Shown: positions 12,351 through 36,341, numbered from the stretch's first letter. The stretch: 37,300 bases of DNA from Psammoneis japonica (GCA_008632985.1 QPGO01000169.1:124001-161300); one strand, 5' to 3'. The notes: generated from the letters alone by a model not told the origin. Made by a program: numbers and translations.

Positions 12351-12442
12351 GTATGTTTTGGTCGAGCACCCTCTGGCGTTGTCACCGAACCTCTTGTTTG
12401 CTGTGCTTAAATACAAATAATTATTTCATTAACTGGCTGTTT

Positions 12443-13528: not shown

Positions 13529-13869
13529 GGTTATTACGCAGTGCCTGTAAAGCAATAGTCGTCGACAGCACTGCAAAGATGCTGGTATTCGCCTTTGCTA
13601 ACTCATTGGTGCTGTAGCCATTCGATTACAGTAGAGTCTATGTATGTACGGTATTTTCGACTTTGTGAGCTTGCTTTTTGACTGTCGGATTGTCCAACGC
13701 ATGCCGTAACGCATGCGACCGTCCGTTGCGTTGCCGTTGCTTGAGACATCTCGCCGCGCGCTTGACCGCCGTCCGTTGAGAGGCCCCAGGACCCGGAGTC
13801 TCCAACGAGATCCACTGGCGAACGCAATGTTTTTCGCCACCAAACAATGATTGGGGTTTGCCGCAACAT

Positions 13870-15130
13870 TTTTTAGACTTGTTTCATGCAGCGTTCAATG
13901 AAAAAGAGAGAGTTGGAGGGCACCTTGCATCAAGTGAAAAAAGCTTTTGTTTGGAAAAGCTTTGCAGGAGACCTCCTCTGAGCCTCCCTCACATTTGTCT
14001 CGACTCTCATGCTGGTTTTCTTGAAAACAGCTGAGTTTTCTCTCATTGTGGTGTGCCCAGCACCATCGTGCAGCACCTTTGTGTGCATGGCTGCTGAGAC
14101 TGCACCTGGCAATGGCTGGAACCTGCACACCGCAATGGAGCAAAAATGATGATTTTAAATTTGGCACAGGTGGCTGCAATGACAAAGATCTCTGCAACGC
14201 ACTTGGGCAGTTGGAGCACAAGGAGGAGCTTTTCTCACATTTGATGTGGCAATGTCACAGCTTGCAGCATCTTGAATGACACGTTTGCACTATGAGACCC
14301 TGACTTTGGGGCTGTTGACATGGGTTGTTTGTGGTGTTTGAGAAGTGGTCGGCCTCACATGGGCAGAAATTTTTTGTCTTCATTTTTTCATGCTGCCCCC
14401 AATCTGCCATTTTCTTTCCAGCTCAGCACTTGGGCTGGAGAAGCAGGCAGCCTCATGACATGTGCTCGGGGCACACTTTGAACAATCAATGTGCTGCTGC
14501 TCTTTTTTTAGAAAGCAATGCAGCGGGCCCAGGGCTTTTGTCACATGCAGCCACCATGCAAAGTTGCTTTGGTGCACCATTTGCAAAGCTTTTTTTTGCT
14601 CTCTGAAGACAAGGCATTGTTGAAAAAGCTTTGACAAATGCTGCCAAAGTTCAAGACTCTAAAAATGAGATGTGCGCTCACAAATCTTGTCTGGTGTGCT
14701 GCTTTGTTGGCAATTTGAGGAAAATGTTTGCACAATCCACCAGCTGCAACAATGCACCTTTTGCCATTGAAAGCACCAGATGCATCTTTCCACTGCTGGA
14801 AAGGTTTCACACATCAGTTCAGCAGGAACACCATGGCCATCACTTGCCATGGTGGCAGCCACAACAAAAACCAGAGTGCGCGCAATTCCTTGAATGAACA
14901 TTGTGCTGTTGTCCAGCACCATTGTGGCAACAATGTTGACAGCAAGTGCTTTGCACTGCAGAGGAGCATTAGAATTGCACATGAATTGTCTGACAGCTCT
15001 TGTTGAAGCTTTCAAAAGGTTGTGTCCACGAACGCAGAACACTCACATTTTCCATCTGAAGCTGCACCAGCAATCTGGCAAAAACTGTCATGCTGGGAAC
15101 AATTGCATTGTCAGCGGGAAACCACCAAAA
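13870..15130. other. Degenerate block depleted of TpA and CpG, probably a TE remnant
   Basis: Sharp compositional switch on both sides. A CWAH-like string near 14050-14070 (-) is too weak to assign a family. Confidence 0.45.
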
Positions 15131-15309
15131 TCATTCGGATATCTGCACAATGTTATAAGTTAGGAGTATGTAGGATGGAGTTCTTGTCAAGATCCATCAA
15201 AATTCAGCAGTCGCGTCAAACGTCAACAACAGCGCATGTACGCATGTACGTGTGTGTTGAAACAACTTTAAAGTTGGAGACCAGAAAGGTAGAATCGATG
15301 AAGTGACGT

Positions 15310-17934: not shown

Positions 17935-18149
17935 TTCACACCTCTAGCTAGTAGAGTTAAAAACCACAGGAGGGTGATTTGTTCTCTGTTGTTGGGTGTG
18001 CTGTGTGATGCTGGCATGACACAAAACAGACGAGCAGCAAAACGCAAAACCCTGAAATGTAAACCACCAGTTGCAACTGGTCTGGGAGGTGAGAACACCT
18101 GGGAAATGCACCGCAGGTGCCCAACCTTGGTGTCGGGACTTTAACAAAC

Positions 18150-18570
18150 CAAAAACAACTGAAACACAAGTTCCATCAATGCTGGCTTGTTGTGATCTTG
18201 GTCAAAATGTCCACCAAAATTGTTTCTCCACCTTCTTTCCCAACTCTCCTCACAATGCCTGCAGCAACACCTTCTCTAACAGTGTGACCACTGGCCATGG
18301 TGTGCCACCAACATTCTTCACAACTCTGATGCTGGCACAAATTTGCTCAAAAGATCTTCAATTGGAGCACCAAGTGCTTGAATTCATGCTGAAATGCAAT
18401 GACCAGCAGCTCCTTGGCAATTTGTGAAGTGGCCAACTTGTTGCTCTCCTCACCAAGCCAGCTGATCAGAGCATGATGCTGTGCAAAAGTCATCATTCCA
18501 CTGTGCAATCTGTGCATGGTTCCATTTCCATCATGATTTACATTGTCAGCACAACCAACCAACACAGTGT
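18150..18570 (-). mobile_element. Decayed Ty1/Copia RNase H fragment within the TpA-depleted block at ~17960-18990
   Basis: CADNVNHDGNGTMHRLHSGMMTFAQHHALISW resembles FVDANHAGN.VTRRSHTG..IF.Q.API.W. It is followed by IAKELLV and then HTVREGVAAGIVRRVGKEGGETILVDILTK, which resembles the Copia RNase H C-terminus YH.VRE.VAAG...V.K.....NLAD.LTK. Confidence 0.8.
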
Positions 18571-19864
18571 GGGCTGATGTGCTGCCGTTTTTCTGAGGAG
18601 CTGCAAGGTGTTTGGACAGTGGTGCCCCCCCTCACACACACACACGCAAAAAAGCACAAAACGTGCGCCACTCTGTCTCCCCACCACCAAAACCCACTGG
18701 ACATGTGGAGAATGACAGCAACATGTGAGTGCATGTGCCAGAGGCCACTCAAGTCTGTGCTTCTTGCAGGAAAGTTCTGTGTCGCATGACCTCACACCAC
18801 CAGCAGCCGAGTCTTCTTCTCTTTCAGTTGTGCCGCGGCCCCACAGAACAGGAGCCAGCACTTTCTTCTGTTGCTTCACATTGCCAAAGCATGTCCTGGC
18901 TCTGACAAAGCAAGCAAATTTCACATGTCTCACCTTGTCCCAGATAAATGACCAAGTGGCATTGCAAACAATCAACCTTCTCTCTTGTCGCAATTTCTGA
19001 TGGAGAATTACAACCGAAGTTGAGCGTCATGAAGAGCAGGCGGCCAGACCGTAGGAATTTGCCTTTTCCGTCCGTCCCTCCGTCATAGCATCGCATCATG
19101 CACCATGACGAAGAAACCAAAAACGCCCGCGTTCAATGCCATTGTAGTACAATGGCTTTGTTACTGACATGGAGAGAGCCATCATGAGCAAGAAGTCTAT
19201 CCTGCATAACCCGTGGGTGCACTGAATTGTTTGATCCGATTCATGTAGTGCGGGGAAATTTTGCGGCACTGATGTGTGTCGGTGTCGGCCGAATATTAGC
19301 GGCGCAACGCGTCCTGTCAAACGGCACTTTTAGCACCTTTGTCGCATCTGACTTAATATTTTACACTGCGATGAAGGAGATATAGCGAGTGATGATCTAC
19401 AGATGTAATATTTCATTATGGTCGAGACTTTCTGTTGAGTTGTTCAATTGCTGATGCATGTTATACTGTGCGACTTGGTCACGCGTGATTCATGCCAAGC
19501 ACATTCGTACCGGTAAATCAACAAATTGCAATGCCAATCAAGAGTTAGAGCATTGAAACTTTCTTCATAAAAAGAGAGAACGGTCGATTTGTGGAGATTG
19601 AATTCAAATCTCTCGATTCATCATCTCTTTATGGACTTATCGTGTGACGCCGAACGGTCAAACAGCCACGTTGGACCACACTCTGTGTTTCTTTTCTCCT
19701 GAAACAGAGTACCAGGTTCCGTTTGATTATTGTCACAGGGCCTTGACTGTTGATGCTTCCTTATTGTTGCCTATTATGAAGAGATTAAAATTCAAGAAGA
19801 AACGCAACGGTGTTCACAAATCTCAAACAGCACACAACTTCGACAGAACGTGTTGGTGTCGACC

Positions 19865-22562
19865 ATGGGGACGGGTCCATCAAAGCAAGTGGAGACCCCG
19901 CCTAGACCTTTTGATCGCAACGAGAGCCGCTCATGCTTAGTTGTATCTCTCAAGAAGAAGAAGAAGTCGAAGAAGGGTAAACAGCGCGACACGTCTGTGC
20001 TGCTCCAACTTATTGCAAGGCGTGATTGGCAAAAGGCGTTGATACGAATGTCGCTTTTTCCTCGGGAGATTTCCACGATACAGAAAATGGACTTATACGG
20101 CGTAGAATGGGAGCTTTTACCTCTTCATTTGGCTTGTGCCTTGCAGCCTCCCACCGCCGTTGTTTCAAAGTTGATGGAGCACCATTCTGACACTGCTCGA
20201 GTGCCGATGATTCGTTCAAAGCAACAAGGTGAGTACATGTCTATCAAAATGAAGTCTTTTCCGGAAACATGCTCATATCATCTTTATTTTATCCCTTCAC
20301 CGGTTAAGGGGAACCTGGCATCTCCTCGATTTCCCGAGGCAAAAGCAAACGCCATCGGAGGAGTTTTGCATTGCTTGCTGGAAGAGGCTCAGGCAAGTCC
20401 TTTTCGTACTTTGAAGAGGGGTCTCGAACGTCGTATCCCAAGACATCACCCACAAAGACCCTCGCTACAGACCCTGAATCAATCGTTCCTTCTCCGCCTG
20501 CCAAGAAACGTCGAGGTGGAAAAGTGGCGTATATCAAAAAGTCCATGGGTAAAAAGCCGATGACGGCAAGGAAGCTATTTCAGGACAAGTCGACGGAAAA
20601 CGCGCGTTTGCCCAAAGAGGAGGACTCATTTGGCTCACTGACTGGTGAAGGCACAACATCAAACGGGCAGTTTCCGAAAAGATTGTTTCAGAGTTCGGTG
20701 GGAGATGAGCCCGACAGGTACTCAATGGTTGACGATACTGCGTCTTGGCACCTTCAGTTGTCTTATCATCGCACTCGCTGGGAGAAGGATCGCCTATCTA
20801 CTCTTTTGAAGACAGCCTCTCCGACGACGAAGACCCGGAAGTCGAGGATGGAGATAGCGTTGACAAGGCTCTAAAAACGAATGCTAGATGCTTGCAACTG
20901 AGTCCTTCAGGAGGGATCCTCACAGTTGAGCTAGACGAATCAGAGCAGCGTTCTTTAGGCGGTCAGGTGGATTTTCCGGAGTCTCTTTCCCCATCTCCCT
21001 GGCTAGATATCGAAAGACAGAGGCTAGACGTTGAACAAAAGGCTCAAGGCGAGAGGAATGATTCTTTACTTGCCGATACGGCAATTGCGGACCTCGATCG
21101 AATTCTCGAGAATGCGGATGATCTTCTCCCCCTCTTCATTGCCTGTCTCTATCGTGCGTCACCTCACGTAATCAAATGTCTTCTCGACGCGCACCCAAAA
21201 GCTGCTCAAACTTCAAACCCGTCGTTTGGAATGCTTCCCATTCATGTCATTTGCTCCAACCTTTCCTTACCGTCGCCTTGTCCGCCTCCAAGCCCTGCTA
21301 TTCCGAACACGAATGGCCTATCCATCGGCGAACAAGACTGGAGCTTGGTGAGGCTTGAAGTAGTCCGCGAGTTGCTTGACGCATTTCCAGAGGCTCGAGT
21401 GTCTCCTAGCGTGCACAAAAACATGACACCATTCGAGTATGCACAACGGTATATGGAAGCTGATGGTGAAAAGGGCAAATGTCTTGATCTGCTTACGGCA
21501 TCTTTTGTACCAAATGGTGGTGCCGTCGCCCTGCGTTCAGACTTCGTTCACTCCATGGATTCATCATATCAAGGACCGTCTGACGAGAATGACAATACTT
21601 TCAATGCACATGAAAGGTAAGGAACGTTGTGGGTTTGCATTACTCAATAGTTTCTGGTACAGTCACTGAATGCAAGTTCTTTTTTTGCTGTATGCTCGTA
21701 TGGTAGAAGGGAAGAAGGAAGCTTCAAACAGAAGGCGTTTCCAGTACCATCCGTCATCCAGTACGACGACGGCATGGCTCGATCTGTAGACAGTGGTTTT
21801 GTCAGTCATGACTATGTCGAGCCTGAACGTTTCGTAGGCACTCAGCTGTACATCCACATTATTAACAAGGACTGGGATGGATGCCGTCACATTCTGAAGG
21901 AAGACCCTCATCAAGCCACCGTATGGCGTTATGGCGTGAATGTTGATTCGAGGGGGGGTCAGCTGCTCTGGAAGCGACTCCCACTTCACGATGCGTGCAC
22001 TCTGGCGACCCCCGTTGACGTTATTGTCTCCTTGATTGACGCTTTTCCCGAGGCGTTGACGTCCCCTGACATGTACAGTGGTGCGCTCCCTCTGCACATG
22101 GCTTGTCGATACAAAGCTTGCGTTGATGAGGCGATAATGGCTCTGCTACATGCTTCCCCCGTGGCTGCCAAGACCCATGACCTGCAGGGCTGCCTGCCCC
22201 TTCATTTACTCTGCATGACTCAAGGGAATTTAGAAGTCGTCAAGAAACTAGTGGATGCTCACCCAGCAGCTGCGTGGATGAGAGACAATTCAGGTATGCT
22301 ACCGGTCGATTATGCCCAGTCGTGCAACTTCGTTCGGGATGCCAACTCTGCTGAGTTGCCGCAACCCAGCGCCCTTGTTGACTTTTTCAAGACGTTGCCC
22401 GCTTCTACTTCATCTCCGAAACACAGACGCGAGAGGGTTAACATAATTTCTGATGCTGCAGGTCGATCGATCATGATTGGTGGTGGCTCAGAAGACATCC
22501 CGAGGACGATCTGTGAAGTGTTTCCGACCTTGCCATTGCTGTCCGAGCCGCGCGAATTATAA
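19865..22562 (+). CDS. Spliced protein with ankyrin-like LPLH..C repeats and an N-myristoylation-like N-terminus
   Basis: ATG at 19865 (MGTGPSK). Introns 20229-20308 (GTGAGT..TAAG) and 21617-21706 (GTAAGG..TAG) both join the ORF pieces in the correct phase. One unresolved frame break near 20744. Repeats include LLPLHLACA, LLPLFIACL, MLPIHVIC, LPLHDACT, LPLHMACR and LPLHLLC. Confidence 0.75.
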
Positions 22563-22713: not shown

Positions 22714-23787
22714 TTAATCTCCCTTTTCTTGCCATGAACTCACCCATTCTTCAAACCGCCTAGACATATTGTGACATTGTGTCGCTGGCAAGTTTCCCTC
22801 TTGTGGTCTGGCTACAAACGCTTCTAGTTCTTCCAAATCAAGGGGGCCACTTCTTTCCTTAAATTGTATCTCAATATTTTCCAGCCTGTCTTCAGCATTG
22901 AGAAAAAGCGACATGCCCGGAACGTAAGGAGCGTATTGCTGCAATACCAAGTTCTTGATTTCATCCTTATCTATACCTCTAGGGTACTCTCGGTGCTTTT
23001 GATTCACACACGTGAACTGCATGGGCACCACCGAAGACAAATGCCAACAGGCCCTGAGCAGCAGAAAAAGCGCCGCTTGGCTGTGCCACTCAGACATGCC
23101 AGGAGGTAAGGTAACGTACGGCAAAATGTGTGGGACATGAGACCGAGAGAACACGTTTAGAATGGCATCAAAGGACGATGTAGTTATGAAGGATTTCGTG
23201 CTGTTTGCTGCTGGGAGACCTTCTATATTTCTCTTTTGACCATACTGAAACAACGCCGTCATGGGACTATTATTTGAAACGACGAGGAGCGTTTCAAGAA
23301 AATGCAAAAACCGCCGCCAACAGGTCTTGACGCTGCTTTCAAAAGGATCATCACAACGAAGCATGGCATCATCGTCGGCAAAGATCCAGTCGGTGAAGTT
23401 TTCACCCCGCCGTTCTTCCTCGATGTACGCGTAGCGTGCAAGAGCATTGCGCCCCGATGTCCAGGTGGTATTCGGAATGAATGTCCGCCGACAGTGGCGC
23501 CGCGACAAACGATCGTTAACAGGCTCGTCATAAGACCCATACACCAAAAGCAGTGACTCGGGGACTAGGGGGGAATTCAGCTTTTGTGCGAGCCAACACC
23601 ATTTGGAAAATTGGGCAGCGGGACCTTGCACCATCAAAACGTGTGTAGCGGTATCGTTTGCACGCTTCAAGACAAACTGCTGTCCATGACGGCTCCAAAA
23701 ATCCAACAGCATTTCCTTCCAGAAGAATGTGATGCAACCATAGATGGCAACAGCAGTTAAAACCGTTTTGACGACGGTGGGCGCCAT
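22714..23787 (-). CDS. Type II membrane protein with a DxD motif, putative GT-A fold glycosyltransferase, 357 aa
   Basis: First ATG at 23787 (MAPTVVKTVLTAVAIYGCITFF, TM segment). Contains PNTTWTSGRNAL and WIFADDD motifs. Intact ORF with normal composition. Confidence 0.65.
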   Translation of the reverse strand: MAPTVVKTVLTAVAIYGCITFFWKEMLLDFWSRHGQQFVLKRANDTATHVLMVQGPAAQFSKWCWLAQKLNSPLVPESLLLVYGSYDEPVNDRLSRRHCRRTFIPNTTWTSGRNALARYAYIEEERRGENFTDWIFADDDAMLRCDDPFESSVKTCWRRFLHFLETLLVVSNNSPMTALFQYGQKRNIEGLPAANSTKSFITTSSFDAILNVFSRSHVPHILPYVTLPPGMSEWHSQAALFLLLRACWHLSSVVPMQFTCVNQKHREYPRGIDKDEIKNLVLQQYAPYVPGMSLFLNAEDRLENIEIQFKERSGPLDLEELEAFVARPQEGNLPATQCHNMSRRFEEWVSSWQEKGD

Positions 23788-24149
23788 GGTGCGTATCAAT
23801 GGAGATGACGATGACGATGAGGGAGGAGAGGGATGAGATGAAAGCAAATAGACAGAGTCAATCTATCTCTACGGTACTCTAGTAGAGAGTAGACTATCTG
23901 AATATTGGACAATGAGAAGATTGATTTCACCTACCTTCTTCATCCAGTTTTATATATATTATAAAATCAATTCATATAAAAAATAACAATATAAAATTTA
24001 TATGTCAAAAGACTATATAATTTATGCACATACGTGTACTGTATCTTAGTTAAAGAGCATCATTTCAACGTTTTTTATCTATTGGATGGAGTGTAACTTT
24101 CAACGGAGATGCGTTGAAAGATGTTATTTTTCTACCGGCACTTATCACC

Positions 24150-26100
24150 ATGCCGGCAAACTGCATGACACAAGAGTGCACCAAGCTGCACAGCCCCACG
24201 ATGAGCGGCATGACAAGCATGATTCCAAGTGGCAAAACCCTTTGCCTGCTCCAAATTGGGCTGGCTTGCACAATTTGCCTTTTTCATCACCTCCTGCTCT
24301 CAATGTGAGTTTGCACTGTGCCAGAACCAGAGCCTTCTTTGCCTGTTCCAAATTGTGCTGGCCTGCCTGCCCACTTTGCCTTCTTCATCTCCTTCTGCTC
24401 TCAATTTGAGCCTGCAGCCAAATCTTCTTCCTCTGTGCCTGATCTGACCATTGCCCCAACACTGGCCAAAAACAAGCACCAGCACACTGAAGCACCCAAC
24501 AAGCACCACCGGTGCACTGAAATGCCCGTGTGCTGAGGGAGGGGAAAGGAACTTTTGCCAACAATCTCTGTGGCACCTTGCTTGGCCATGTTCAATTTTT
24601 TGTGTCTGTCCACTTCTGTGTTGTCATTCAAGCTGCAGGCACCTCTTCAAGAATGTCCAAGCCAAGTGTTGGTGCGGGGCAACATGATGTGACATGGACA
24701 ACTTCTGCAAGAATTTTTTGGCAAAGTCACTGAAAAAGAGGAACATCAATGCCCCAGCAACAAAACAGAAGAACAGCTTCATGGCAAAAAAAATGTTGAG
24801 TTAAATGCAAAAATGATCTTGTGGAGTGTGCACTGTGTGTGAGTTGAATGCAGAAAAATGATGAGACGAAGTGTTTTTCCCATGGGTGCAGAAGAAACAG
24901 GCCATTGCAAACTGACAGAGCTTTGCAGTTTGAACCTTTCATTGCCCCATTGCTGCTGGCTCTGGCAGCAACAGAGAGGCTGAGGTTTGTTCCCAACATG
25001 AAAAGCTGCGCACTTGTTTGCCACCTGCCAACACACAATGTGCAACAGCCAGATTTAAAAAAAAACAATGGGTCTTAGAACAATGGGTGGCAAAAGCTGA
25101 GCCAGCTGCTGCACTTGCGGTTGCTGCTGTTGAAACCCAGCAACAACCAACAACAGATTTGTCCTCTGCTCTTGACTCTTTCATTTCTTGTTGGAAAACC
25201 CCAAACTCTAGCTTGAAAAGCCTCATCAAAGCAAATGCTGTTTGTTGTGCCAAATGCAGGGCAGCAGCAGACAGCTGGGCCATTTTTTCACTGGTGTGTT
25301 TTTGTTGCAGATGTGAGAAGCTTTCACACACTGAGATCAGATGCTGCACCTGCCGTCCATTCTTTTGTCACCGTGCCTTTTGTGCAAGCCAGTCTGACAG
25401 ACTGTCTCCCAATTTTTCACTTTGCTTCTTTCCTCAAATCTGTTTGTTGCAAAGTGATGGCAATCATTCTTGCTCATTGCTTGGAGGGTGCAGGAAATGA
25501 ATGAAAGAAAAGAAATCCACCACAAGGAAATTTTTTGTTGAGAAAATGTCAGGAAACTTCACACAGCTGTTTTGCTGCCTCTTCAAGCCACTGTTTTTCT
25601 GTTTCTTCCACCTGGCTGTTTTTGACAAACTCTTGCACTTTTCACATCATGAAGGGTTCATGCCACAAAAAAGAACAGAGTTCTAACTCCATTTTGCATT
25701 GGACAAATTGGGGTGAACTGACTTTGCATGTGTTTTTTGCATGGTTGGTTGTCTCAAAGATTGATTGGTTTGCTGACCTGTGTGGCGGGGAGCCTCAAAA
25801 GTGAACAACTGCATGATGTCATTGAAGAAGCTGTGGCATCAAAGTTTGATGGATGTGTGGTGGTCAAGTGATTTGAAAGACAGAAGCAGAGGCGCAACCA
25901 TGAACCATTGACCAACTTTCAATGCTCAAACGACAAGTGGCACCATGGAATGAAGTGAAATGGCCACCAAACTCAGGTGTCACTAATGTCATTGTTCCGC
26001 TGTACAACATTGGGCATGTTGCACTTGCATCTGGGCTTCTTAATCGTCGTGCACCCTTAAAACTGATCACTGTCATTCTTTTGCCTAGAAAAATGCAATG
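24150..26100. other. Degenerate block depleted of TpA and CpG, containing a ~97-bp internal duplication (24241-24410)
   Basis: TTTGCCTG.TCCAAATTG.GCTGGC...TTTGCCTT.TTCATC.CCT.CTGCTCTCAAT occurs at 24241 and 24338. No recognisable protein family. Confidence 0.5.
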
Positions 26101-26222
26101 TCTTTTTTTTATGAAGACAGGCGGCTTTTTTTCTCACAAACAAGTACGACACAGAAGTTTACCTCAAGGCAACAGGCCAAGGGGCTACAAAAATGACATT
26201 TATTGTATCGATTATGACACAC

Positions 26223-28541
26223 TCAGCTACTATCCTCATCATCATCACTTTCCGATTCTTCCTCGCTATCATCATCGCTCTCTTGTTCTAGAAAGTCCAG
26301 GAAATCTTGCGTAGGTTTCTGCTGGAATAGTTGCCGCCGTGGGCTGTCATCATTCTCTTGTTTTCTCACATCTTCTGCCCACGACAAGATGGCCGCCTCG
26401 TTAACAACCTCCATGTCATGTAGGGTTTGCAGCAACAAGCGAAAATGCGGCTCTTTCATGAGCGAATCTCCGGCATCCCCGCCGCCCAAAGCAACTGCCT
26501 CTAAAGCAGATATGATACTCTTTTCTTCGTTAATGCCAATGCTCATCTTTCTGAAAAGTGGTCCCCAGTGATCTAGCAAACCACGCATCGACCCAACAAG
26601 CTTCTTCACGCTAATGTCAGGGGTAAGATTCATCTTCTCGAGAATTGCAAGAGTAGCGGCTTTTGTGCAGTCCGAGTAAGTGGCGTTTTGACTGAACTTG
26701 TACGAGTTGAGTTCAATACCCAAATTCTCGATCGGACTCGTCGGTTCATGCTCGAGACACATTGTCTTCAACTCTTTAATCACGTCTACACCTTGCTGTC
26801 GACCGACAATGACACCAAACTCGTTGTGGTTTGCCATGTCCGCGGCTCCAAACGAAAATCCAGAATCATAGTCCTCCTCTTCAAAGTCCACGTCAATCGG
26901 CTCTTGTACATCACTGAGCCCGTCATCTACCTCTTCTTGCTGTAGTTCAAATCGTTTTTGGTACAGAGGCGATGTGTCATATCCCATGCTTTGAGATTTC
27001 ACAAATTCCCGCACACCATCGCCACTATCACCGTCAACTTCTTCGTCATCACTTTCAGAGTCTTCCTCAAAAGGTGGAAGCCAAATCCGGCCCAATCCCT
27101 CAGCACCCACAACATGGCGATCCGAAACAACGGTATCTGCCCGGTCTTTATCAAGGGAATCAGCCTTGTCCGATGCGCTGTCGCTTGATGATTCCGAAAA
27201 ATCTGAAAAGTCATCGTCAAACTCGTCGTTCTCGGTTGCCAATGTGATTCGAGTAAAGTCCGGTACCGTTGTGTTGGCGCCAATGACACATCCTCGACCA
27301 ATTACACACCCACGTCCAATGGTTGCTCCGGCTTTGATTACGCAGTGGCTGGCCAATACAGATAGTGTTGCGGTTACTCCCTCTTCCACGACGACATTGT
27401 CCCACAAATGACAATCCTTCAACGCGACTCTTGATGCAATGCTACAATTGTTTCCAAGGACCGTGCCGAGAATGACACAATCATCTTGAATGACACATTC
27501 GCTTCCAACCATCCCTGGTCCACGAAGAGTGGAACTTCGACCGATCTTTGTAAGGGCCTTACTGTTTGTTTCCTTGTACAGGTAGTGTCGCTGCAGCACA
27601 TACCGATACTGCTTTTCATAACCCGACGGAAGGTTATCCGGAACAACCGGATAACACCAGCGCCTGAGCAAGTCTCGGGAAACAGCCGCATACGATGAAA
27701 AATCAACCACTCGAGCTGCGTATTCCGAACTCTGCAGCAAATGAGCATGAATCCGATTCTGAAGCCCTTCCTCCTCTTCGGCAACCGAATAAGCCACAAA
27801 CTGCTTCCGCATGTCCTCATAGTCAAACGCGTCGCTAAATCTGGCAAGCACGTCGGGACTGCAAATATCCACACCACAATCCAGCAAGTCACCTCGTAGC
27901 TGCACCTGAGGATGAGACGCAAAAAACGAACAAGGCACGGAAACTCCCTTAGAGCTGGCATCGTTGTCGTACACCAAGATTCGATTTTCTTGAGTAGGAT
28001 CCATCCCGATAATCAAATCATCACGAGTGGACACGAGCGGAGAATAAAACACGGTATTTTCTTTTTGCACACCGCCGCCGACTGGTTTCAGTAAGAGCGT
28101 CATGATTGCGCTGCTGTCCTTTTTCTTTCTCGCCTTGTGAGCCTCCATGGCCGGTGCAATATCCACATTGGTAATACAATTGCCGTGCATGAGCAAAAAG
28201 GGGTCACTCTTGATGATGTTTCGCTTGTCCAACTCGCGCAACGCGTCTCCCTCGCTTGCAAAGTTGCGGTCCACAATGCAATCAATCTGAAACGAAACCG
28301 ATAAGTTCCACTGCTGAACGTGCGTCTTTACTTCGGGACGAGTCGTCACTACGACGAGCTCTTGTACGCCCGCTCCCACCAAGAATTCCATGGCATAGTC
28401 AATCAATGTAATGTTGTTTAGTTTGGAGAGCACATGGGACGTTTCCATCGAGAGTGGGCCCAAACCATCCGAGTCCAACGCGAGCAGCACTGCCTGGAGC
28501 TTTTGCTCATGCTTGTTGTCCTGATCGGGTGCACGACCCAT
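26223..28541 (-). CDS. EIF2B5: Translation initiation factor eIF2B subunit epsilon, 772 aa
   Basis: N-terminal nucleotidyltransferase-like domain (LQAVLLA, GDALRELD, DLLDCGVDICSP, RRWCYPVVPD), left-handed beta-helix hexapeptide repeats, acidic linker and C-terminal W2/HEAT domain (ELNSYKFSQN, ILSW, FLDFLEQESDDD). Confidence 0.96.
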   Translation of the reverse strand: MGRAPDQDNKHEQKLQAVLLALDSDGLGPLSMETSHVLSKLNNITLIDYAMEFLVGAGVQELVVVTTRPEVKTHVQQWNLSVSFQIDCIVDRNFASEGDALRELDKRNIIKSDPFLLMHGNCITNVDIAPAMEAHKARKKKDSSAIMTLLLKPVGGGVQKENTVFYSPLVSTRDDLIIGMDPTQENRILVYDNDASSKGVSVPCSFFASHPQVQLRGDLLDCGVDICSPDVLARFSDAFDYEDMRKQFVAYSVAEEEEGLQNRIHAHLLQSSEYAARVVDFSSYAAVSRDLLRRWCYPVVPDNLPSGYEKQYRYVLQRHYLYKETNSKALTKIGRSSTLRGPGMVGSECVIQDDCVILGTVLGNNCSIASRVALKDCHLWDNVVVEEGVTATLSVLASHCVIKAGATIGRGCVIGRGCVIGANTTVPDFTRITLATENDEFDDDFSDFSESSSDSASDKADSLDKDRADTVVSDRHVVGAEGLGRIWLPPFEEDSESDDEEVDGDSGDGVREFVKSQSMGYDTSPLYQKRFELQQEEVDDGLSDVQEPIDVDFEEEDYDSGFSFGAADMANHNEFGVIVGRQQGVDVIKELKTMCLEHEPTSPIENLGIELNSYKFSQNATYSDCTKAATLAILEKMNLTPDISVKKLVGSMRGLLDHWGPLFRKMSIGINEEKSIISALEAVALGGGDAGDSLMKEPHFRLLLQTLHDMEVVNEAAILSWAEDVRKQENDDSPRRQLFQQKPTQDFLDFLEQESDDDSEEESESDDDEDSS

Positions 28542-29824
28542 ATTGTTATCTGTAATTTATTCTGTGAGGCGATATCAAAACAGTGCCGCCTTTTAGCTAG
28601 GTGACGAAGGGATCAAATAAAGAAGAAGGGTACAACACTCAGCAAAAAGCAAAAAGACAATGTGGCGGTCAATCAAGATACAAACACAGAACGGGTGTGA
28701 TAAATTGCGATGGAATAAAGTGATTTTTGCAAAGCTCGTTCGACACTTACAGCGTAAGCCAAGCTAGAGCAGAAGAAGCGAAGAGTAGAAGCCCGGGCGG
28801 CGCCTCAACAACTACAACAACAACAATAGCTAATCACAGACGTGTGGAGCTTTGTGATGTATGCTCCACTTTCCACTTGTGACACTACTTAGCTAGCTAG
28901 TAGGGCCCTACTTGTGCTCCATGGAAATTTTGCGCAACCCGCGCGGCCTGTCCAGCGCAGTGATCTCCTCACAGGCTCAGATATTCTATTTGACCGTCAG
29001 AAGAGGTTGGGAACCTGTCCCGAAAATCTCGATTCAAACAGACGCAAAGACAAAAGACCTCCTACTCGAGTTGCACGCAACAAACTGCGGCGCAGCACAA
29101 TGATGAGTGCCGCCGGTGTCACCGTAGGCATTTTGACATCTCAACGAGTCTTTCACCGATTTTCCAGTTTCTTGTTTCATTCTTAGCGATAATTTCACAA
29201 TCTGTCCGATTGGTTTGGTCCCATTGTGTGTCAATGAGAATTGTGGATTTGTGGTTTGTCCAAAGTTTGCCAAAAAATCGATTGTGAGATTTCAGGGGCC
29301 CTGGCTGGCAGTGGACAGGTACGTGTAGACAGGTGCGTGAGTGCTGTTTCGATTCTCAATGGCGCTTTCACCAGTTTTCTCACTTCTTTTTTGTTTTGCG
29401 TTAATCTTTTTCTGTTGTGCAGAAAGTTAAAGGGTGTGGAGCATTTTTGTGGTGATCCACTTTTTTGGGAAGAGCTGCATCACTGACAGCATTGCCGGTG
29501 CGCACCAGCAACAAGTGCAACGGCGACACCGTGAGCAGGTGCTGTCATCATTGCTGGTGTGTACGGGGAAGAAGTGCGCGCCACAGTGTTGCCATGAGCG
29601 CAAAACTGTTGGCACTTTTTGCAGGTTGGAACAGTGCAAACAAGCTCGTGAAGGATGCAGGTCAGCACTGCGTGAGCAAGCGCGGAGATTACGGATTCGT
29701 CTCGTGCGGTGCTGTGAAACTGGAGACATGAGAGCAAGTCATAGCCATGGATTAGAGTGATGCAAGCGAGCGCATGGCAGCTTGTGGTGTTTTGAAACTG
29801 AAGAATGGCAAGTTTGCAGACTTG

Positions 29825-30576
29825 TCAATCAAAAGAAACGGCCAGTTCTGCTGCGATGTTGACCTCCTCTCGGCATTTGTTGTGCTTGAGGCAATCCAAA
29901 ATGTGCTTGCACCCCATGCAACCCAAATCCTTTGTTGACATGTCAGGTGCATGTGTCACAGATGTGCCACTCACTGTTTCCGTCGTGTCCTTTCTCGCTC
30001 CAACAGATTCTTCAGATTCTTCGCATGGGAGCCCTTGGAGCTTCAGAGTTTTCGTGTAAGCCGCCTCAATGCAACACACCCACATGTCGCAATCATTTGT
30101 GTGCCTTGCTTGTCGAGGCATTTGAGCCCTCATCCACTTGGCTTGGGTGTTGATGAGAGGCGTGGAGGCAAACACATTCTGCAGGTCAAGCAGCGACGTT
30201 CGTAGAAATTTGGTGCCAAGTCAAAAAATGCAAACAGATCCTGTCCGGCTCTGGTTTGGTCAAGAACCTTCAAAGCCCAGTGGCCAGCTTCGTGCGGTCC
30301 ACAGAAGACTTGTGTGAAGATTAACTTGTCTTTCTCAAAATCTGTTTCCACTTTTCCTTGTTCTTGCAGTTTTTTCAAGAATGGTGTCCAACCCGCTTCC
30401 GTGCCATGCATCAAATGTTCGCAATGGAGAGAGCTGACAAAGTCATCAGTGCTGCGCCACACCCCGCTGTCACGGTGCTTGTTTGCCAATGAGTTCAAGC
30501 ACATGGTTGTGCAAAAGCCATTGATCATTGTTCCTTGGTTGTCAATGGCACTGAGCTCTTCCGGATCGAGTTGCAC
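29825..30576 (-). pseudogene. Ulp1/SENP-like (C48) cysteine peptidase domain carried by the Crypton
   Basis: GHWALKVLD (His), FAFFDL (Asp, resembling FDS) and, after a frameshift, PRQARHTNDCDMWVC (resembling Q....DCG, Cys), in the canonical His-Asp-Cys order. Confidence 0.8.
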
Positions 30577-33092
30577 TGCGCCAAAGTCAAGTTCCGATGC
30601 CGGATGCGGCCTCTAGCTTTGTTTGATGATGAGAGCAGGTTCCGCTTGCGCACTTCTTTTTTCACCGCTTCCGCAGTGGAGCCGACTTCAGAGAGCTCAT
30701 TCAGTTTGCGTTTCTTTGGTTTCTGGATGCTGCTCTCAGAAGTTTTTTAAAGTTTTCGAAGCGAACAGGCTGTTGTTTGCCAATGGATTTGATCAGTGCG
30801 CCTTTTTCTCCCGGTCGCTGTCGTTTCAACCGATTGAAGAATGCTCTGAATTGCCGGAGATGCATGGAGCGCAGCAACTGCAGATGTTGCACCTTTCTTC
30901 TTTGTTGTTGTAGCCTCATCAAATGCATTGCATGGAAATCGGAGATTGCACAATGTGGCTTTGCGGCCCTTCGTTTCTTTCAGGTCCCTGTCTGCAAGGC
31001 TTTTCCAAGGCGGCGTCAGGAAGAGCTCACCTTTAGAACCAATGCGCTGCTCGCCAAAATGCCAACAAATCCATGCGTCCAACGGCGAAAGCTTTGCATT
31101 CAGTTCATGGTCTTTCGGAGTGCCGTGCCAACTGCCATCTCCCCAATCAAAGGCAGCTTTCTTTGTTCTTGTGCCTTTTCTGTCCTCACCTTCTGCAGCA
31201 ACAATCTTGCTGTCATCGTGACCCGACCCTGAGTCACATTTCACAGACACTTCATCCAATTTCTTTGAGATGGGGTCCAGAAGGACTTCTTGGATCACAT
31301 CCATGGTCAATTCCCCACCACCAATCTGACGTTGGTCCAACACAGAGACGAAAAGCTTTTCAATTTGGGAAGGGACCGACAGAACAATTTTTAGAAGAAA
31401 CGACTGATGTCCAAACATCTTGGCAACTGGAGTCATTCCAGTGAAATTGACTTTCCATGATGACTGGCCAGGATTTGACCATGGATGGCAGCACTTGCAG
31501 CACGAGCCAAGGTTCCGAATGACCTCTTCACGGCAAACAACTGAGGTGCGAAGTGGATTTGTCCGGTGGAGCCTGTTTCTTAGAAAACTCCAATGAAACA
31601 CTGATGAAGCAAGCAAGTGTCGACAAAGCATGAGTTGCCCATTCGACATGTCCCCAAACAGGCTTCTGACACCATCCAACACATCGTTTTCTGAGGGGAT
31701 GATGTCGGAATTTTCTGCTGTGCCGGACTGCGAAGACAATCATTCACAGGTTGCTCGTTTTCAAAAAATGCAGACACGTCTCCAAGACCGGTCTCTTCTG
31801 GGTCGGCAGGTGACACATCAAAGCATGGCATCGAAACCATAAAGTTGGACGAGTTCACATCTAGGACAGCAACCGTGCGTCCGCAAACTTGGTCTCCAGC
31901 CGCGCCTTGTGTTGCAAACAAATGTCTTTCACCTGACCCATGGTCCATCCAGCTCGCACGCATGCAGCAGCAAAGCTCACACCACTGGTGGTTCCGTTGC
32001 AGCAGCATGCAGCAGCGCCTTTTTGAATGGAGTGAACGCCAATGCTTTTCGGATCAACTCCAAGGCCTCGCATCTCCTCATCGTGTGCTCGCACCACTCG
32101 ACCCAGCAGTTTGCAAAATCGATCATGCTGGCTGTTCCCTCCAACAGAGGACCGGACTCTCGTCCATGAACAAAAGCAGCACGAAAACGAGCAATGGACA
32201 GAACTGGACAAATCACGGGATTTAACGGGTTGGCGTGTGTGTGCCGTTTCCTCGCAGCTTGTTCTCCCAACATGTTGGTCTTGGAGTGAGCAAATTGCAC
32301 AATCATGGCATCACCCTCCCACCCAATGTGCTCCAGCAGCACAAGAACCGTGTTGCATGAGCGACACATCAGGTTCCAAGTGAGCATGAGGAAGCAGTGC
32401 CCGAATGTTGCTTCTGTGCTTTTGTCTTCAAGCAGCCATTTACACAAGGCACAGCACACCTGGAATGGAAGGGGAGCTTTTCCATCTCCCAAAGCCTCCC
32501 CAGTTGCATTGCGGGCTGCAGCAGCTGTGTTCTTTAAACCAGTCACAGCTTTTTTGAGTTTCTGTTTAAACTGCTCCGTCGGAACAACCTCACACTGCCC
32601 GAACAGATGCGTGAGTGACGCCCGATGACCTCCGCACGACTTGAGACAAAGGTTTGTTGTTGTGCTGTCCCTGAGCTTGCAGAAGTGAGCCATGTGCACA
32701 GCAACAGTTAACTTCTCCAATGCAATTGGGTGGTGCATTGGACTGGCACGAAAAATGTGCTTCATTGCCACCGCCCTTGCATGCTCCATGCAGCCCTTGC
32801 CTGATTCCACGCGGTCCAAATCGGCCTTCAAGTCTGCGTGTAGAATTTTGTAATTTTCGCTTGCTTTCTTTGCAGAGTTCTTGAAATAGAGAAACACAAT
32901 GAATCGGGAGAGAGAAAGGCGGTGCCCATGCTTTGCACCACGATCGATGTTCGCATCCACAATCCACTCCACACCTTCCATGAACTCGTCCTCATCATCA
33001 GAAAGCTCGTCTTCCAAATCATCACCTTTGGACCCACCACCAGTTCGAGCAATGTCATCCCTGTCCATGCAGGCAAGGAGGTCCTCAATCAT
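29825..33092 (-). mobile_element. Crypton-type tyrosine-recombinase DNA transposon (pseudogenised) with a C-terminal Ulp1/C48 peptidase module
   Basis: YR motifs: GDGKAPLPF, LTWNLMCRSCNT (catalytic Arg), FAHSKT (Lys), HTHANPLNPVICPVLS, IGVHSIQKGAA (HxxR with R>Q) and RAGWTMGQVKDICLQH..AGDQVCGRTV. Crypton-like C-terminal region FDWGDGSWHGTP..AWICWHFG..PPWKSL. Peptidase motifs follow. Several frameshifts. Confidence 0.88.
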
Positions 33093-33281
33093 CTAGGGTT
33101 TGTTGTTGGCAATCGTCAACACTGCCATGGTGTTGTTTTCTCTTCAACGAAAAAAGCAACAACAAATCGACAGGGAACGAATGAAGACAAGAGACGAGAG
33201 GCGTGTGGAGGAGCGCGGAGTGGGAGGCGGGCTGATGTCAGTTTGCCTTGCACAGACACAAGAGGGAACCATGACAGATGG

Positions 33282-33410
33282 TGCCAACCGAGGGTTGGCA
33301 ATTTTCCCTTGAAGATTTTGACAGCGTCGCAGATTGCACGCAAAATGTGCTGATTCGAGTGAGTCAAAAAAAGTCGTTTCAACGGAACATTGCCAACCAG
33401 AGGTTGGCAA
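33282..33410. repeat. Two copies of an interrupted palindrome, TGCCAACC-NNN-GGTTGGCA
   Basis: TGCCAACCGAGGGTTGGCA at 33282-33300 and TTGCCAACCAGAGGTTGGCAA at 33390-33410, 190-320 bp upstream of the YR ORF start. Confidence 0.85.
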
Positions 33411-34360
33411 AAACGTCTGTTTGCCACACCGGAACGCGTCAGCAGTTGGCAGAATTCCAGACTTTCAACCTCCTCCCCCCTCCACCCCCATCGTTTCGTG
33501 CAGCATGTTGCACTGAAATGACACCAGGCCACAGATTGTGACAAACTAAAATGCACAAGGAGAGCACCTGCCACAGCAGCATTTTCACAGCTGCTTTCTT
33601 TTTTTGGCTCTCTTCTGAGGTGTGCAAAAAAGTCTCTTTGAAGGTTTCACAAGGGCTGCAACAAGAAGGGGGGGGCTTCTTTCACAAAAAAATGCACAAG
33701 GCACTTTGAAGCAAAATGTGCGCAGCTCCCTGTGTTGCAAAAAGAAGTGGTCCTCAGCCAACAGGAAGGGGGGAGAGTGGCAGAGCCAACATGAGGCTGC
33801 ACCAGAGGGCTGTGCTGCTCTCATGGGCGGTGCCGAACTTCTTGTTTGCTGTGTTGACAAAGCAGGGTTTTGAGCCCAACTTTCCACAAAATTGGAAATC
33901 ATGCGTGGGCAAAGCAGAAGATGGAAAGTTTGCAGTTTGCCCAGCAAAGATGTGGCAACTCTGAAAATTCTGCACACAGAGTTGCGCGCAGCAGCCGATG
34001 GCTTGACTGCTCCTGCCGCTTTTGCAAATGGTTCAGCACACGAGGGAAAAAGGCAAGATTTCAATTTTTGCAGCAGAGCACAGTCTCCCATGGTTGAAAC
34101 AAATGGCTGGCATGTGCCAAAAATCCCATGCTTCAAATGTGTGAGACTCTCCAGCTCTGGAGCAGCAGCATCAAATGATCTCTGTCTTTCACAGTTGGAT
34201 TTTAGAGTTGAACTTCATGGTGATTTTCATCCATTGACCAACAAGAGCACATCTGTCCATCCCCTCTCACAACGCACAAGAATCCAAAATTGGTCGCACA
34301 CGTCCTGCGCACAACACAACACAAAAATTCCACACACAACAGCAAACACCACCTTTCACC

Positions 34361-34750
34361 ATGGTGACGGCTTGCTCCCCACGTGTTGTTGTCCATCAGG
34401 TTGTCTCCAAGGGCAAGACACTTGGCACCTCCAAGAAGTGTGCCACACTCAAGTTTGGTTTCGCCAACACCCAAGCTTTGTCAGGTGGGTTGGTGGGAGC
34501 AAATTGCCATGGCAGCAAACACAAGGTCAATCTCATTTCTCATTTGGAGTCTCAGTGCCGGCAAGCATCAAATTTTGCCAATGGCGAGGAAGTGCACACT
34601 GTTCAGAAAGCTGTGTCAGTGGCTGGACAGCCAACAGAAGCTTTCAATGCAGCTTTTTGCTGTGCAGTCTGGGCTGCAGAGCCCTCAAGTGTCAGGTCAT
34701 GTTGGCTCTGGTGCAGCCCATCAGAGTCTTGCCATGTGATTTGATTGTTG
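34361..34750 (+). pseudogene. Pseudogene of a conserved diatom hypothetical protein
   Basis: An A/C-rich leader and ATG are followed by KGKTLGTSKK.ATLKFGFANTQAL..G.VG.NC.GS.H.V.LI / WSLSAGKHQIL / NGEEVH. I recall this motif string from diatom hypothetical proteins (unverified). Frameshifted and TpA-free. Confidence 0.55.
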
Positions 34751-34898
34751 GTGGTGTTTGGATTCATTGAAAGTGCAAGATCATTCAATTGGGAATGTCT
34801 CAAATGAGAAAAATGTCCAGGGTCATTGGCAGTGATGGTGGCCTGCATCATGAACCCGATGTTGATCTGTGCGCAGGTCATTGTGCGGGTGCTGTCCT

Positions 34899-35400
34899 TC
34901 AAGATGTGCCGACACTCCTTTTGAAGTGTGCCTCTTCCATGAGCAGTGATGCCAACAACTTGTTCCTCTCTTTCTTCCAGGCATCCTCAGCATCTGTGTT
35001 GATCCCATCTTCTTTCTTGGCGATTTGTTCTGAAATGACTCTGCCACAGGACCCTCCTCTCACCATCTCAACAACACACTTGTGAGCCGATTGCAACAAT
35101 GTTGAAGTGTCCTTCCTTTGTCCTGCTGACAAATGAGCACCAACTGCTTCCAAGCCTTGGCAGCTTAAATGTGCAAGCAGATTTGCTTGCTTGCATTGAA
35201 CAAGATTGACACGAGAATTTGCCATGGTGCCGCCACATCTCTCACTCCTTTGTGACCCTCATGAACTCTGTCACTCCTTTCATTTTGCAATGAACAGCCT
35301 TCACATGCTGTCACACAAGCCCATCAAATGCCTTCACTGTCTGCATGTGTGTCTTGCAGATTGTGCCTTGTTTTGTGCAACAATTGTGTTGTTTCCCCCA
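34899..35400 (-). mobile_element. Possible decayed Copia gag fragment
   Basis: VNLVQCKQ..CVVEMVRGG..G..AWKKERNKLLASLLMEEAHFKR loosely resembles diatom Copia gag (VVE..GG; A.E..LA.LL...AD..R). Weak match. Confidence 0.35.
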
Positions 35401-36341
35401 GCTGCCTTGTCTTTCTCTGATGCGGCCCTTGAAGCACATCATTTTTTGCTCAGCCAGGCACACTCTTCAGATGTTGAAGAATGCACCCCTGGCACATTGC
35501 TGTTCCTGCAAACTCATCAAATGAAATGTCTGGGGTCTCACAAAACAGCGAGTCTGGAACAATTTTTTGGAACATCACACACAGAAATGCACGTGCAAAG
35601 CATGTGGCAGATGACAAAAAACACAATTGTGTCGTCACACATCAGCACTCTGGCAAGCTCCCAGCACCTGGGGGGGCTGGAACGCATGTTCCAGGTGTGC
35701 AGATGGATTTGAATTGGATTCGTGCAAATTTGAGCTAAAAGCAAAACTGCCACAAGCTCATTTGCTGTGCATGGGCAAAGGCATGGGGGCTTGAATGAAA
35801 GTTTGACTGTGCCAGAAACATCTGCAACATTTTCAGCGCTGTGCATCAAAGAGCTGGCTTTTGAGTCAGTGACGGGCCAATGCTCGGTCTCCCCAAAAAA
35901 AGGCCGAAGCTTTGGAAAGACCGCATTGTTCGAAAATGAGGGAGAAAACAAGGAGAACTGAAAAAAATCCTTTTTTCCTGCATCCCCCCGGGTTCGGCCC
36001 AACCGGCGCCATCCGTGTCCGCGGATCCGCGTTTTGTCAGTCCCGCGTCTCACAGGCTCCTTCAAGTTCGAGGGAAGTTTGGCAAGCGTCATCCAGACGT
36101 CTCAGGGCCCGGGATAACGAAGCGCGCATTTGCGCCCGCGGGCAAAAAGCGCCCTGCCGGGCGGAAGGCACCCGGAAAACCGCGCCCTGCTGGGCGCTTC
36201 TCTTGTTCGCAGGGCGCCCGGCAAGTGATGAGTGCCCACAACACGTACAATCCTACGTGCTCTGGTAGCACTTTGACAGCGACTCGTCCCTCCAACCGTT
36301 TCTCACATAAAAAACACACAAGCAACCATGAGCGGCGCTCT

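Follow-up and report, generated by a model that had tools for sequence, protein, structure and literature searches.

Gene-bearing and TA-free blocks in the window

We analyzed 37,300 nucleotides (nt) from the diatom Psammoneis japonica (GCA_008632985.1, QPGO01000169.1:124001-161300; hereafter the window, with positions counted from its first letter), which contain at 28962-33508 a dead CryptonS-like tyrosine-recombinase DNA transposon (hereafter the Crypton) that has lost most of its TpA dinucleotides and has kept most of its CpG. The 37.3-kb window is an alternation of six gene-bearing blocks and seven nearly TA-free blocks; the latter are the Crypton and six further blocks (1-5024, 7011-12024, 13875-14969, 17959-18944, 24144-25983 and 33509-35836), to which we refer as old blocks. 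Dinucleotide content was expressed as the observed/expected ratio (o/e), for whole blocks as well as for tiles of 500 nt.

Gene blocks showed TA o/e of 0.54-0.75, CG o/e of 0.87-1.10 and TG and CA o/e of approx. 1.2, and the seven TA-free blocks showed TG/CA o/e of 1.4-2.2. In the old blocks both dinucleotides were depleted (TA o/e 0.026-0.063, CG o/e 0.13-0.24). The preliminary description of this DNA had placed the Crypton at 29430-33500 and had claimed that it keeps CpG but has lost TpA; that stretch (4071 nt) indeed contained 24 TA (o/e 0.095), where approx. 150 would be expected with a gene-like TA o/e of 0.6, and 173 CG (o/e 0.675), with TG and CA o/e of 1.47 and 1.60, respectively. The example given for this claim, i.e., 32041-32100 with five CG and no TA, was counted as described. 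Over 28962-33508 as a whole (4547 nt), TA o/e was 0.118 and CG o/e was 0.692. When compared by tile, CG o/e was significantly higher in the Crypton (0.60-0.83 in 9/9 tiles) than in the old blocks (0-0.45 in 31 tiles; P = 6.6e-6, Mann-Whitney test), and TA o/e was significantly lower in the Crypton (0.03-0.27) than in gene tiles (0.34-0.79; P = 8e-6), with no overlap between the tile classes. The GC content of the TA-depleted DNA was approx. 0.48-0.50.

The borders of the Crypton are sharp. Public run X1 includes 77% of the sampled words of the window and probably represents the window's own sample rather than independent biology; one of its contigs joins position 28961 to position 33509 with 22 other letters between. 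Because of this joint and of a step in CpG content at 33508/33509, we treated 28962-33508 as one insertion unit. At the right border the CpG level drops from 0.74 to 0.23, with the last CG of the element at 33497 and the next CG at 33721. The tile of the left flank (28484-28961) showed TA o/e of 0.79, and as this TA-normal flank abuts the element, the TA depletion does not reach beyond the insertion. The X1 joint and the TA positions place the left border at approx. 28962 rather than 29430. The features of this part of the window are as follows.

28962..33508, minus strand: copy of a Crypton-like tyrosine-recombinase element, one insertion unit (composition, X1 joint, CpG step)
32115..33092, minus strand: N-terminal and core part of the recombinase, frame -3, within the 371-amino-acid (aa) open reading frame (ORF) 31977-33092 (protein homologues, tblastn)
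31909..32145, minus strand: catalytic C-terminal part of the recombinase, frame -2 (tblastn; relatives with conserved His-x-x-Arg ... Tyr)
31059..31978, minus strand: conserved C-terminal region of the Crypton protein, frames -1 then -3 (alignment to a 662-aa relative)
32005..32007, minus strand: catalytic Tyr codon, now TGC (Cys), TA>TG (Tyr in 19/19 homologues)
32023..32025, minus strand: Arg codon of the catalytic region, now CAA (Gln), CpG>CpA (Arg in 18/19 homologues)
30130..30612, minus strand: 160-aa ORF within the Crypton (no Pfam match at threshold, no PDB relative)
33509..35836, no strand assigned: adjoining older block without TA and CG (TA o/e 0.026, CG o/e 0.238)
24144..25983, no strand assigned: comparison block without TA and CG (TA and CG counts; reproduced by an X1 contig)
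28557..28961, no strand assigned: TA-normal flank, upstream of the eIF2B-epsilon gene (TA positions)
26223..28556, minus strand: host gene for eIF2B subunit epsilon, with ordinary dinucleotide content (Pfam)

Eight proteins were found to be homologous to the 371-aa ORF (E = 1.8e-74 to 4.6e-43), metagenome contigs contain 21 related loci, and the protein-atlas neighbours of the element protein are DUF3504 and Phage_integrase (PF00589) clusters. For an intact relative of 662 aa (locus L005, 87-2072), the structure predicted by AlphaFold (mean pLDDT 58, with residues 80-395 mostly at 70-90) gave Cre as the best structural match (E = 1.3e-4, probability 1.00, TM 0.44-0.46), and the predicted fold also matched XerH, Flp, lambda Int and XerD. 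This relative aligns to 32972-31059 in frames -3, -2, -1 and -3, an order of frames that indicates at least three frameshifts in the window copy. As the two catalytic columns carry Gln and Cys in the window copy in place of Arg and Tyr, its recombinase is catalytically dead.

Profile searches were less informative. None of six ORFs from 29.8-34.8 kb matched a Pfam family at threshold (one sub-threshold, unrelated match), and the intact relatives had no Pfam hit either, with a sub-threshold Phage_integrase match (E = 0.11) in relative P0006. A PDB sequence-profile search with the recombinase found designed helical repeats only. The Pfam search of the six element ORFs revealed no reverse transcriptase signal, although a decayed reverse transcriptase could escape Pfam. 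No homologue of near length was found for ORF 30747-31739(-). ORF 30130-30612(-), for which the PDB sequence search found no relative, has a His-Trp stretch that recalls Ulp1-type (C48) peptidases, without support from the Pfam and PDB searches. No terminal inverted or long direct repeats were found in 28600-33800; CATGG at 28920-28924 and CATGT at 33504-33508 lie near the element ends and are at most a hint of terminal repeats altered by TA>CA changes.

CryptonS elements, as portrayed in the account of Kojima and Jurka (2011, PMC3212892), occur in oomycetes and one diatom and encode a recombinase with a conserved C-terminal region, sometimes with a second gene for a C48 peptidase; they typically end in direct repeats of 5-6 bp, mostly of 5 nt with TA at the start. 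The window element resembles this description in its tyrosine recombinase with a conserved C-terminal region, in having no GCR1_C and no inverted repeats, in its low copy number and in its stramenopile host. In contrast to CryptonS elements, the window copy is dead (Tyr>Cys, Arg>Gln, frameshifts) and its terminal direct repeats are not established.

The long readable ORFs named in the preliminary description stood in part: the 371-aa ORF has real homologues, but ORF length itself is a weak sign. Since TAA and TAG are gone and TGA is the sole stop left, ORFs of approx. 200 aa arise by chance in TA-free DNA. This was the usual length of the longest chance ORFs in first-order Markov simulations, of which 1/100 reached 371 aa.

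Several observations concern the rest of the window. Every named best match of the eIF2B-epsilon protein was from a diatom (41-51% identity), and the protein-atlas neighbours of two window proteins were mostly Bacillariophyta. Two same-strand paralogous genes (5551-6635 and 12442-13532), 7 kb apart, share 85.6% identity over 1.1 kb (150 differences, transitions to transversions 77:73) and have normal TA content; as this duplicate pair is untouched, duplication alone is not the trigger of TA hypermutation. A contig of a second run (X2) lies on 19103-20225, 20306-21614 and 21705-22059; the 80 and 90 nt that it skips are GT...AG introns (with the cut shifted by 3 and 2 nt) that are TA-rich (5 and 6 TA). 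X2 thus resembles transcript data, and the introns are free of hypermutation; X2 did not cover most TA-free bins and was not used as evidence. A TA-rich tract containing (TA)n (23951-24143) directly adjoins the TA-free block starting at 24144, forming another sharp depletion border. Two short stretches (13708-13873 and 35837-36114) are TA-free and CpG-rich (CG o/e 1.38 and 0.98) but show no excess of TG/CA; they probably represent GC-rich DNA close to genes, not hypermutated sequence, and cannot be counted as cases of lost TA with CpG kept. No tandem repeats were found in 33400-36300.

Direction and sequence context of TpA loss

To read the direction of change from conserved codons, we projected 29 relatives onto the codons of the window copy and used columns with at least five relatives and a majority residue. 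Among 12 Tyr-majority columns, the window copy has Tyr in one, His (CAY) or Cys (TGY) in nine, including the catalytic Tyr, and another residue in two. Among 24 Arg-majority columns it has CGN in 12, AGR in two, CpG-type products (Cys, Trp, Gln) in four and other residues in six. The ratio of lost to kept codons was thus 9/1 for Tyr (TA) as compared to 4/12 for Arg-CGN (CpG), a significant difference (P = 0.0036; Fisher's exact test). Control columns were largely conserved (Cys kept in 9/9, His in 8/9). In 18 related loci, on the other hand, Tyr was kept in 89/89 cases with no change to His or Cys (P = 6e-12 as compared to the window copy). These tests indicate that the window copy descends from a TA-containing ancestor.

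The Crypton consensus is not itself TpA-poor, as TA o/e was at least 0.39 in 19 of the 21 related loci (median 0.59) and was low only in L008 (0.10) and L001 (0.34). Both of these are independent metagenome contigs with Tyr>His/Cys changes, at 4/7 and 4/11 columns, respectively. CpG density was 42.7 per kb in the Crypton, as compared to 39.2 per kb in 16 relatives. Neither did TpA and CpG loss scale together, the other outcome that the preliminary description had named as contrary to its claim: the correlation across the 21 loci was not significant (Spearman 0.35, P = 0.12). The decayed relative L006 (14 stops) shows the opposite of the window copy, with CpG-type changes at 6/10 Arg columns and Tyr lost at 0/8. 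As metagenome copies, these 21 loci speak to the separability of the two losses rather than to a trajectory within one genome; L001 and L008, as compared to L006, show that the TA process operates in some environmental organisms but not in others. Overall, TpA loss is uncoupled from CpG decay, as had been claimed.

TA sites were then classed by the number of strands (0, 1 or 2) on which the A precedes a pyrimidine, i.e., Y-TA-R, mixed and R-TA-Y. The number of TA per kb in genes, Crypton and old blocks was 7.05, 3.52 and 2.27 for class 0, 21.67, 3.30 and 1.11 for class 1, and 14.36, 0.66 and 0 for class 2. As compared to genes, the class distribution differed significantly in both the Crypton (P = 8e-6, chi-square test) and the old blocks (P = 2e-19); when the baseline was taken from 18 relatives instead of genes (L001, L004 and L008 were left out), the class proportions were the same. 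By triplet, densities per kb in genes, Crypton and old blocks were 13.4, 0.44 and 0.12 for TAT, 12.4, 1.10 and 0.25 for TAC, 8.9, 2.64 and 1.78 for TAA, and 8.3, 3.30 and 1.23 for TAG, the best-retained triplet in the Crypton.

These data were described well by a two-rate model, in which T-A-Y and T-A-R sites each have a rate of their own and each strand is hit independently of the other. Classes 0 and 2 of the Crypton gave kR*t = 0.35 and kY*t = 1.54, from which a class 1 retention of 0.151 was predicted (observed 0.152); the old blocks gave 0.57 and 2.4, a ratio of approx. 4.3 as in the Crypton. The products follow the same rule: in the mixed class of the Crypton, where the TA deficit was 18.3 per kb, favoured products (YTGY and RCAR) were in excess by 16.2 per kb, as compared to 5.6 per kb for disfavoured products (YCAY and RTGR). 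In addition, at columns with a majority of at least 60%, a purine precedes the codon in 5/5 Tyr>His changes, as such a rule requires. TA loss therefore prefers T-A-Y approximately 4-fold over T-A-R on both strands. With the thymine of the opposite strand as the target, the rule becomes R-T-A; a route that modifies thymine, e.g., by oxidation to a base that pairs with G, would leave the complementary pattern, and the attacked base is not readable from the sequence.

Editing of the ADAR type (A-to-I), carried into DNA, was considered and rejected. ADARs favour a 3' G beside the target A, and a heritable change would need an RNA intermediate; TAG is the best-retained triplet here, TAT and TAC are nearly gone, and no reverse transcriptase was detected in the element.

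CpG decay and element copies in public reads

In the old blocks, CpG was converted rather than missing from the outset, as the TA deficit alone accounts for less than half of the TG+CA excess. Relative to gene blocks, the TA+CG deficit and the TG+CA excess were 434 and 424 in block A, 424 and 421 in B, 90 and 88 in C, 80 and 85 in D, 158 and 138 in E, and 191 and 181 in G, as compared to 221 and 183 in the Crypton. The preliminary description had named Copia and FG-GAP remnants that lack both dinucleotides; the depletion of TA and CG in the old blocks is evident, but our searches did not confirm an origin from Copia or FG-GAP sequences. At 398-403, where adjacent codons had been taken to carry both processes (TAC GGA to CAC AGA), the minus strand reads CACAGA. 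None of 115 old-block ORFs of at least 75 aa matched Pfam at the gathering score (one Kelch_6 match, E = 0.0097), and 12 old-block ORFs searched at E<=10 gave nothing relevant. Pattern searches for hallmarks of Copia found none in the old blocks, apart from a zinc-knuckle-like pattern at 25303-25344. For the longest ORF in 1-5024, i.e., 2225-2992(-), HMMER against 1.84 billion representatives gave two hits (E = 2.6e-5 and 4.3e-4), in which 25 residues match the TPR_10/12 repeats found in NB-ARC-TPR proteins; this lends no support to a Copia origin of that frame.

Residual CpG in the old blocks differed by context (P = 6e-6; chi-square test over contexts). Only 2 TCGA were left, versus 81 in genes; S-CG-S contexts (CCGC, CCGG, GCGC) were kept at 33-41%, and ACGT, ACGC and ACGG, which have no 5' T on either strand, were reduced to 13-17%. 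A loss biased to TCGA is unlike the pattern of spontaneous decay of 5-methylcytosine (5mC), and it may hint at an enzyme that changes C to T where a T precedes the C. At TA-free margins of old blocks with TG/CA excess, CG o/e was intermediate (0.61 at 5026-5406, 0.67 at 7011-7208 and 0.48 at 14971-15139).

The preliminary description had proposed that the two losses form a two-speed clock for the age of insertions. CpG exposure, estimated as -ln of CG o/e relative to genes, was approx. 0.35 for the Crypton and approx. 1.8 for the old blocks, i.e., at least 5-fold higher in the latter; the corresponding ratio for TA was approx. 1.6 with either rate. TA loss is saturating, perhaps with new TA arising from TG or CA, or it is front-loaded or episodic; an episodic course is suggested, by analogy, by the line-to-line variation in Bigelowiella natans discussed below. 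TA retention can thus order young insertions and cannot date old ones. Of the proposed clock, the finding of TA near saturation in DNA with largely intact CpG stands; its use for dating is limited by the single element, by the saturation of the TA signal and by the disproportionate exposures.

X1 word depth over the element was 130-230, as compared to approx. 60 in single-copy DNA, with depth 32 for a 375-nt unitig identical to the window copy and 41.5 for the contig that lacks the element. The last two depths fit a hemizygous insertion, with a paralogous site as the alternative. Among the 40 differences displayed (of 815 between X1 contigs and the window), the window reads CA or TG at three positions where X1 contigs had TA (29137, in all six contigs, 29243 and 31422) and at two where they had CG (29911 and 31425); TG and CA were swapped between copies at 31408/9 and 35387/8. 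The scattered TA and CG states, together with the opposite products, suggest that the copies decayed independently. A 5350-nt X1 contig (depth 62) covers 23163-28512, including the TA-free block 24144-25983, with six differences.

Two other repeated segments were seen in X1. A short, highly repeated segment (approx. 29100-29350) lies at the left end of the element, with depth 300-3000 at 29137-29243. To the right of the element, 34.7-37.3 kb belongs to a high-copy family (depth 470-1600), and word depth over the adjoining old block 33509-35836 reached 470-1600 versus approx. 60.

Explanations and their implications

We favour the explanation, with a probability of roughly 0.6, that a dead CryptonS-like copy was hit by a context-specific TpA>TpG/CpA process, with CpG decay as a separate and slower process. 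Under this explanation, inserted DNA would be marked by some signal other than mere duplication, and an enzyme would convert A to a base that pairs as G at T-A-Y, on either strand, within the marked unit. This conversion, presumably deamination of adenine to hypoxanthine, would continue until mostly Y-TA-R sites are left. The Crypton has lost approx. 85-90% of its TA steps, including that of the catalytic Tyr, since its divergence from an active master. CpG decay (CG to TG or CA) is separate; it has barely affected the Crypton and has taken approx. 80-87% of CpG from the unrecognisable TA-free blocks near it. TA loss would come first and fast, and CpG loss later and slowly; this order appears simplest because of the CpG step at the border, the readable Crypton frame and the absence of recognisable coding in the CpG-poor blocks (0/115 ORFs). 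Adenine deamination in DNA is suggested as the chemistry by a proposal made for B. natans, and 5mC deamination in methylated transposons, with the difference in CpG read as one of age, is the presumed source of the CpG loss. In diatoms, DNMT5a methylates transposons at CpG, and a DNMT4 that is related to RID and of unsettled function occurs in many species (PMC9998398).

Bigelowiella natans provides the closest known parallel. According to the preprint of Mettrop et al. (10.64898/2026.01.13.699255), 231 of 302 nuclear mutations in mutation-accumulation lines fell in two integrated viral regions; 230 of these 231 were A>G/T>C, all at TpA, and one was G:C>A:T. The rate was approx. 6e-7 per site per generation and approx. 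1000-fold over background, and only some lines were affected; stretches depleted in TpA and enriched in CpA+TpG were rich in transposon domains, and an ADAT2-like adenine deaminase was proposed (10.64898/2026.01.13.699255). As in B. natans, TpA>TpG/CpA transitions here are confined to inserted or foreign DNA, with genes and introns unaffected, and the Crypton shows no parallel G:C>A:T excess (Arg CGN kept in 12/16); the six older blocks differ in having lost CpG. In contrast to B. natans, a chlorarachniophyte (Rhizaria) whose targets have a Rho of 0.45, the host here is a diatom and the depletion is near complete (o/e 0.03-0.12). The words "CpG", "trinucleotide", "flanking" and "context" do not appear in the main text of the preprint, which thus presents neither a comparison with CpG nor the T-A-Y preference; the neighbouring bases may be listed in its Table S2. 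No report of TpA hypermutation in diatoms was found in the literature searched. Together, the trinucleotide specificity and, by analogy, the hypermutation measured in B. natans support the earlier claim of an active, specific process rather than general drift.

Several points weigh against the favoured explanation. The window holds a single CpG-retaining element (n = 1 plus metagenome copies), and host genes or 16 relatives stood in for the ancestral composition. TA and CpG exposure are out of proportion, and the losses are therefore not two constant-rate clocks; as the element-less X1 contig is locally diverged from the window, no absolute date was obtained. The assignment of CpG loss to 5mC deamination is by analogy, and the old blocks have lost TCGA more than any other CpG context, unlike the pattern of spontaneous 5mC decay. 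The DNA at 34.7-36 kb is high-copy in X1 (470-1600) and yet CpG-poor, so that copy number or methylation load, and not only age, may set CpG loss. Finally, L008 is strongly TA-depleted, yet its 14 residual TA (3/8/3 in classes 0, 1 and 2) show no clear shift to Y-TA-R; L001 has 11/27/13, and both loci are too sparse for testing the T-A-Y rule.

One alternative, which we consider unlikely, is the same TA hypermutation with CpG kept in the Crypton through absent or weak CpG methylation rather than through youth. The extent of CpG loss would then reflect methylation load, which would leave no clock. An element-specific mark would give a CpG step exactly at the element border, as observed, and the CpG-poor state of the high-copy DNA but not of the Crypton (2-4 copies), as well as the intermediate CpG of the TA-free old-block margins (0.48-0.67), would be expected. 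On the other hand, some CpG-type decay has occurred at conserved Arg in the Crypton (4/16), including the Arg of the catalytic region, and its recognisable frame with few frameshifts, as compared to 0/115 matched ORFs in the other blocks, fits a younger age. Decay of methylated transposons resembles the changes in the old blocks in the conversion of CG to TG or CA with a matching TG/CA excess, and differs in that the loss here is biased to TCGA.

This bias also speaks for a single deaminase with a 5'-T rule that makes both signatures by converting A quickly at T-A-Y (A>I) and C slowly at T-C-G (C>U), an explanation that we regard as improbable; the two speeds would then belong to two substrates of one enzyme instead of two pathways. 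TCGA, in which either strand reads T-C-G, has been lost far more than any other CpG context, but contexts without a 5' T (ACGT, ACGC, ACGG) have also fallen to 13-17%. The TadA/ADAT2 family shares with the pattern here the 5' T before the target adenine: the natural tRNA substrate of TadA is U-A-C, and early adenine base editors preferred Y-A-C, both of which resemble T-A-Y. The ADAT2 of amphioxus, when produced in E. coli, deaminates C in the context TCG and A in the context GAA of DNA (PMC10354150); its action on both bases would suit a single enzyme, but its preferred adenine context is GAA, unlike the TA affected here, and in B. natans all but one of the 231 mutations were at TpA, the exception being G:C>A:T.

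It is very improbable that the family is TA-poor by descent, i.e., that the window copy stems from amplification, or mobilisation in trans, of a master already mutated or of a non-autonomous copy. TA loss would then predate this insertion and would not inform on its speed at this site. Dead copies can be mobilised in trans, and X1 contains several copies with at least 85% likeness (depth 130-230 versus 60). An active recombinase, however, needs its catalytic Tyr (a TAY codon), which is Cys in the window copy; other copies have TA where the window has CA or TG (at 29137 in 6/6 contigs), swaps between TG and CA point to independent hits, and TA content was ordinary in 19/21 related loci. A sequencing or assembly artefact (e.g., misread modified bases) can practically be dismissed even though X1 is probably not independent of the window, as X1 k-mer contigs of depth approx. 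60 reproduce TA-free DNA with six differences in 5350 nt and therefore exclude a read-level artefact of noisy long reads, as independent metagenome contigs (L001, L008) carry the same Tyr>His/Cys pattern, and as the borders are sharp and the trinucleotide rule is strand-symmetric.

Fungal repeat-induced point mutation (RIP) was rejected as an explanation of the pattern. RIP is C>T, mostly CpA>TpA, and raises TpA and lowers GC. The two resemble each other as targeted transition hypermutation that kills transposons in place: in both, a dinucleotide context sets the targets, the borders are sharp and the elements end up unrecognisable. Here, in contrast, TpA is depleted, GC is approx. 0.48-0.50 and a duplicated 1.1-kb gene pair is untouched.

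TpA-directed hypermutation has been described once before, in another lineage (B. natans, 2026); new here are the diatom host, the targeting of a DNA transposon, the preference for T-A-Y and the fact that the process is explicitly set apart from CpG decay. A second, distant lineage would point to a widespread genome defence with a bias opposite to GC>AT. The T-A-Y preference, seen in residual TA as well as in products, narrows the search for the enzyme and argues against an ADAR-like activity, and a natural DNA adenine deaminase would be of interest to base editing. The process also explains how transposons escape annotation, as none of the 115 older-block ORFs was matched and chance ORFs of approx. 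200 aa arise without TAA and TAG. Its separation from CpG decay lets each process be studied singly and, if calibrated, could serve to date insertions.

A more specific proposal, which we put forward only tentatively, is that diatoms, as would B. natans, run a DNA adenine-deaminase defence, in which a TadA/ADAT2-like enzyme would act at T-A-Y on both strands of new or silenced insertions, either independently of 5mC or with an additional slow conversion of T-C-G to T-T-G. If this is true, Tyr codons of inserted elements would be erased fast, the context of residual TA together with CpG retention would give a two-dimensional date of insertion, and this kind of defence would have an early origin in the SAR (stramenopiles, alveolates and Rhizaria) supergroup.

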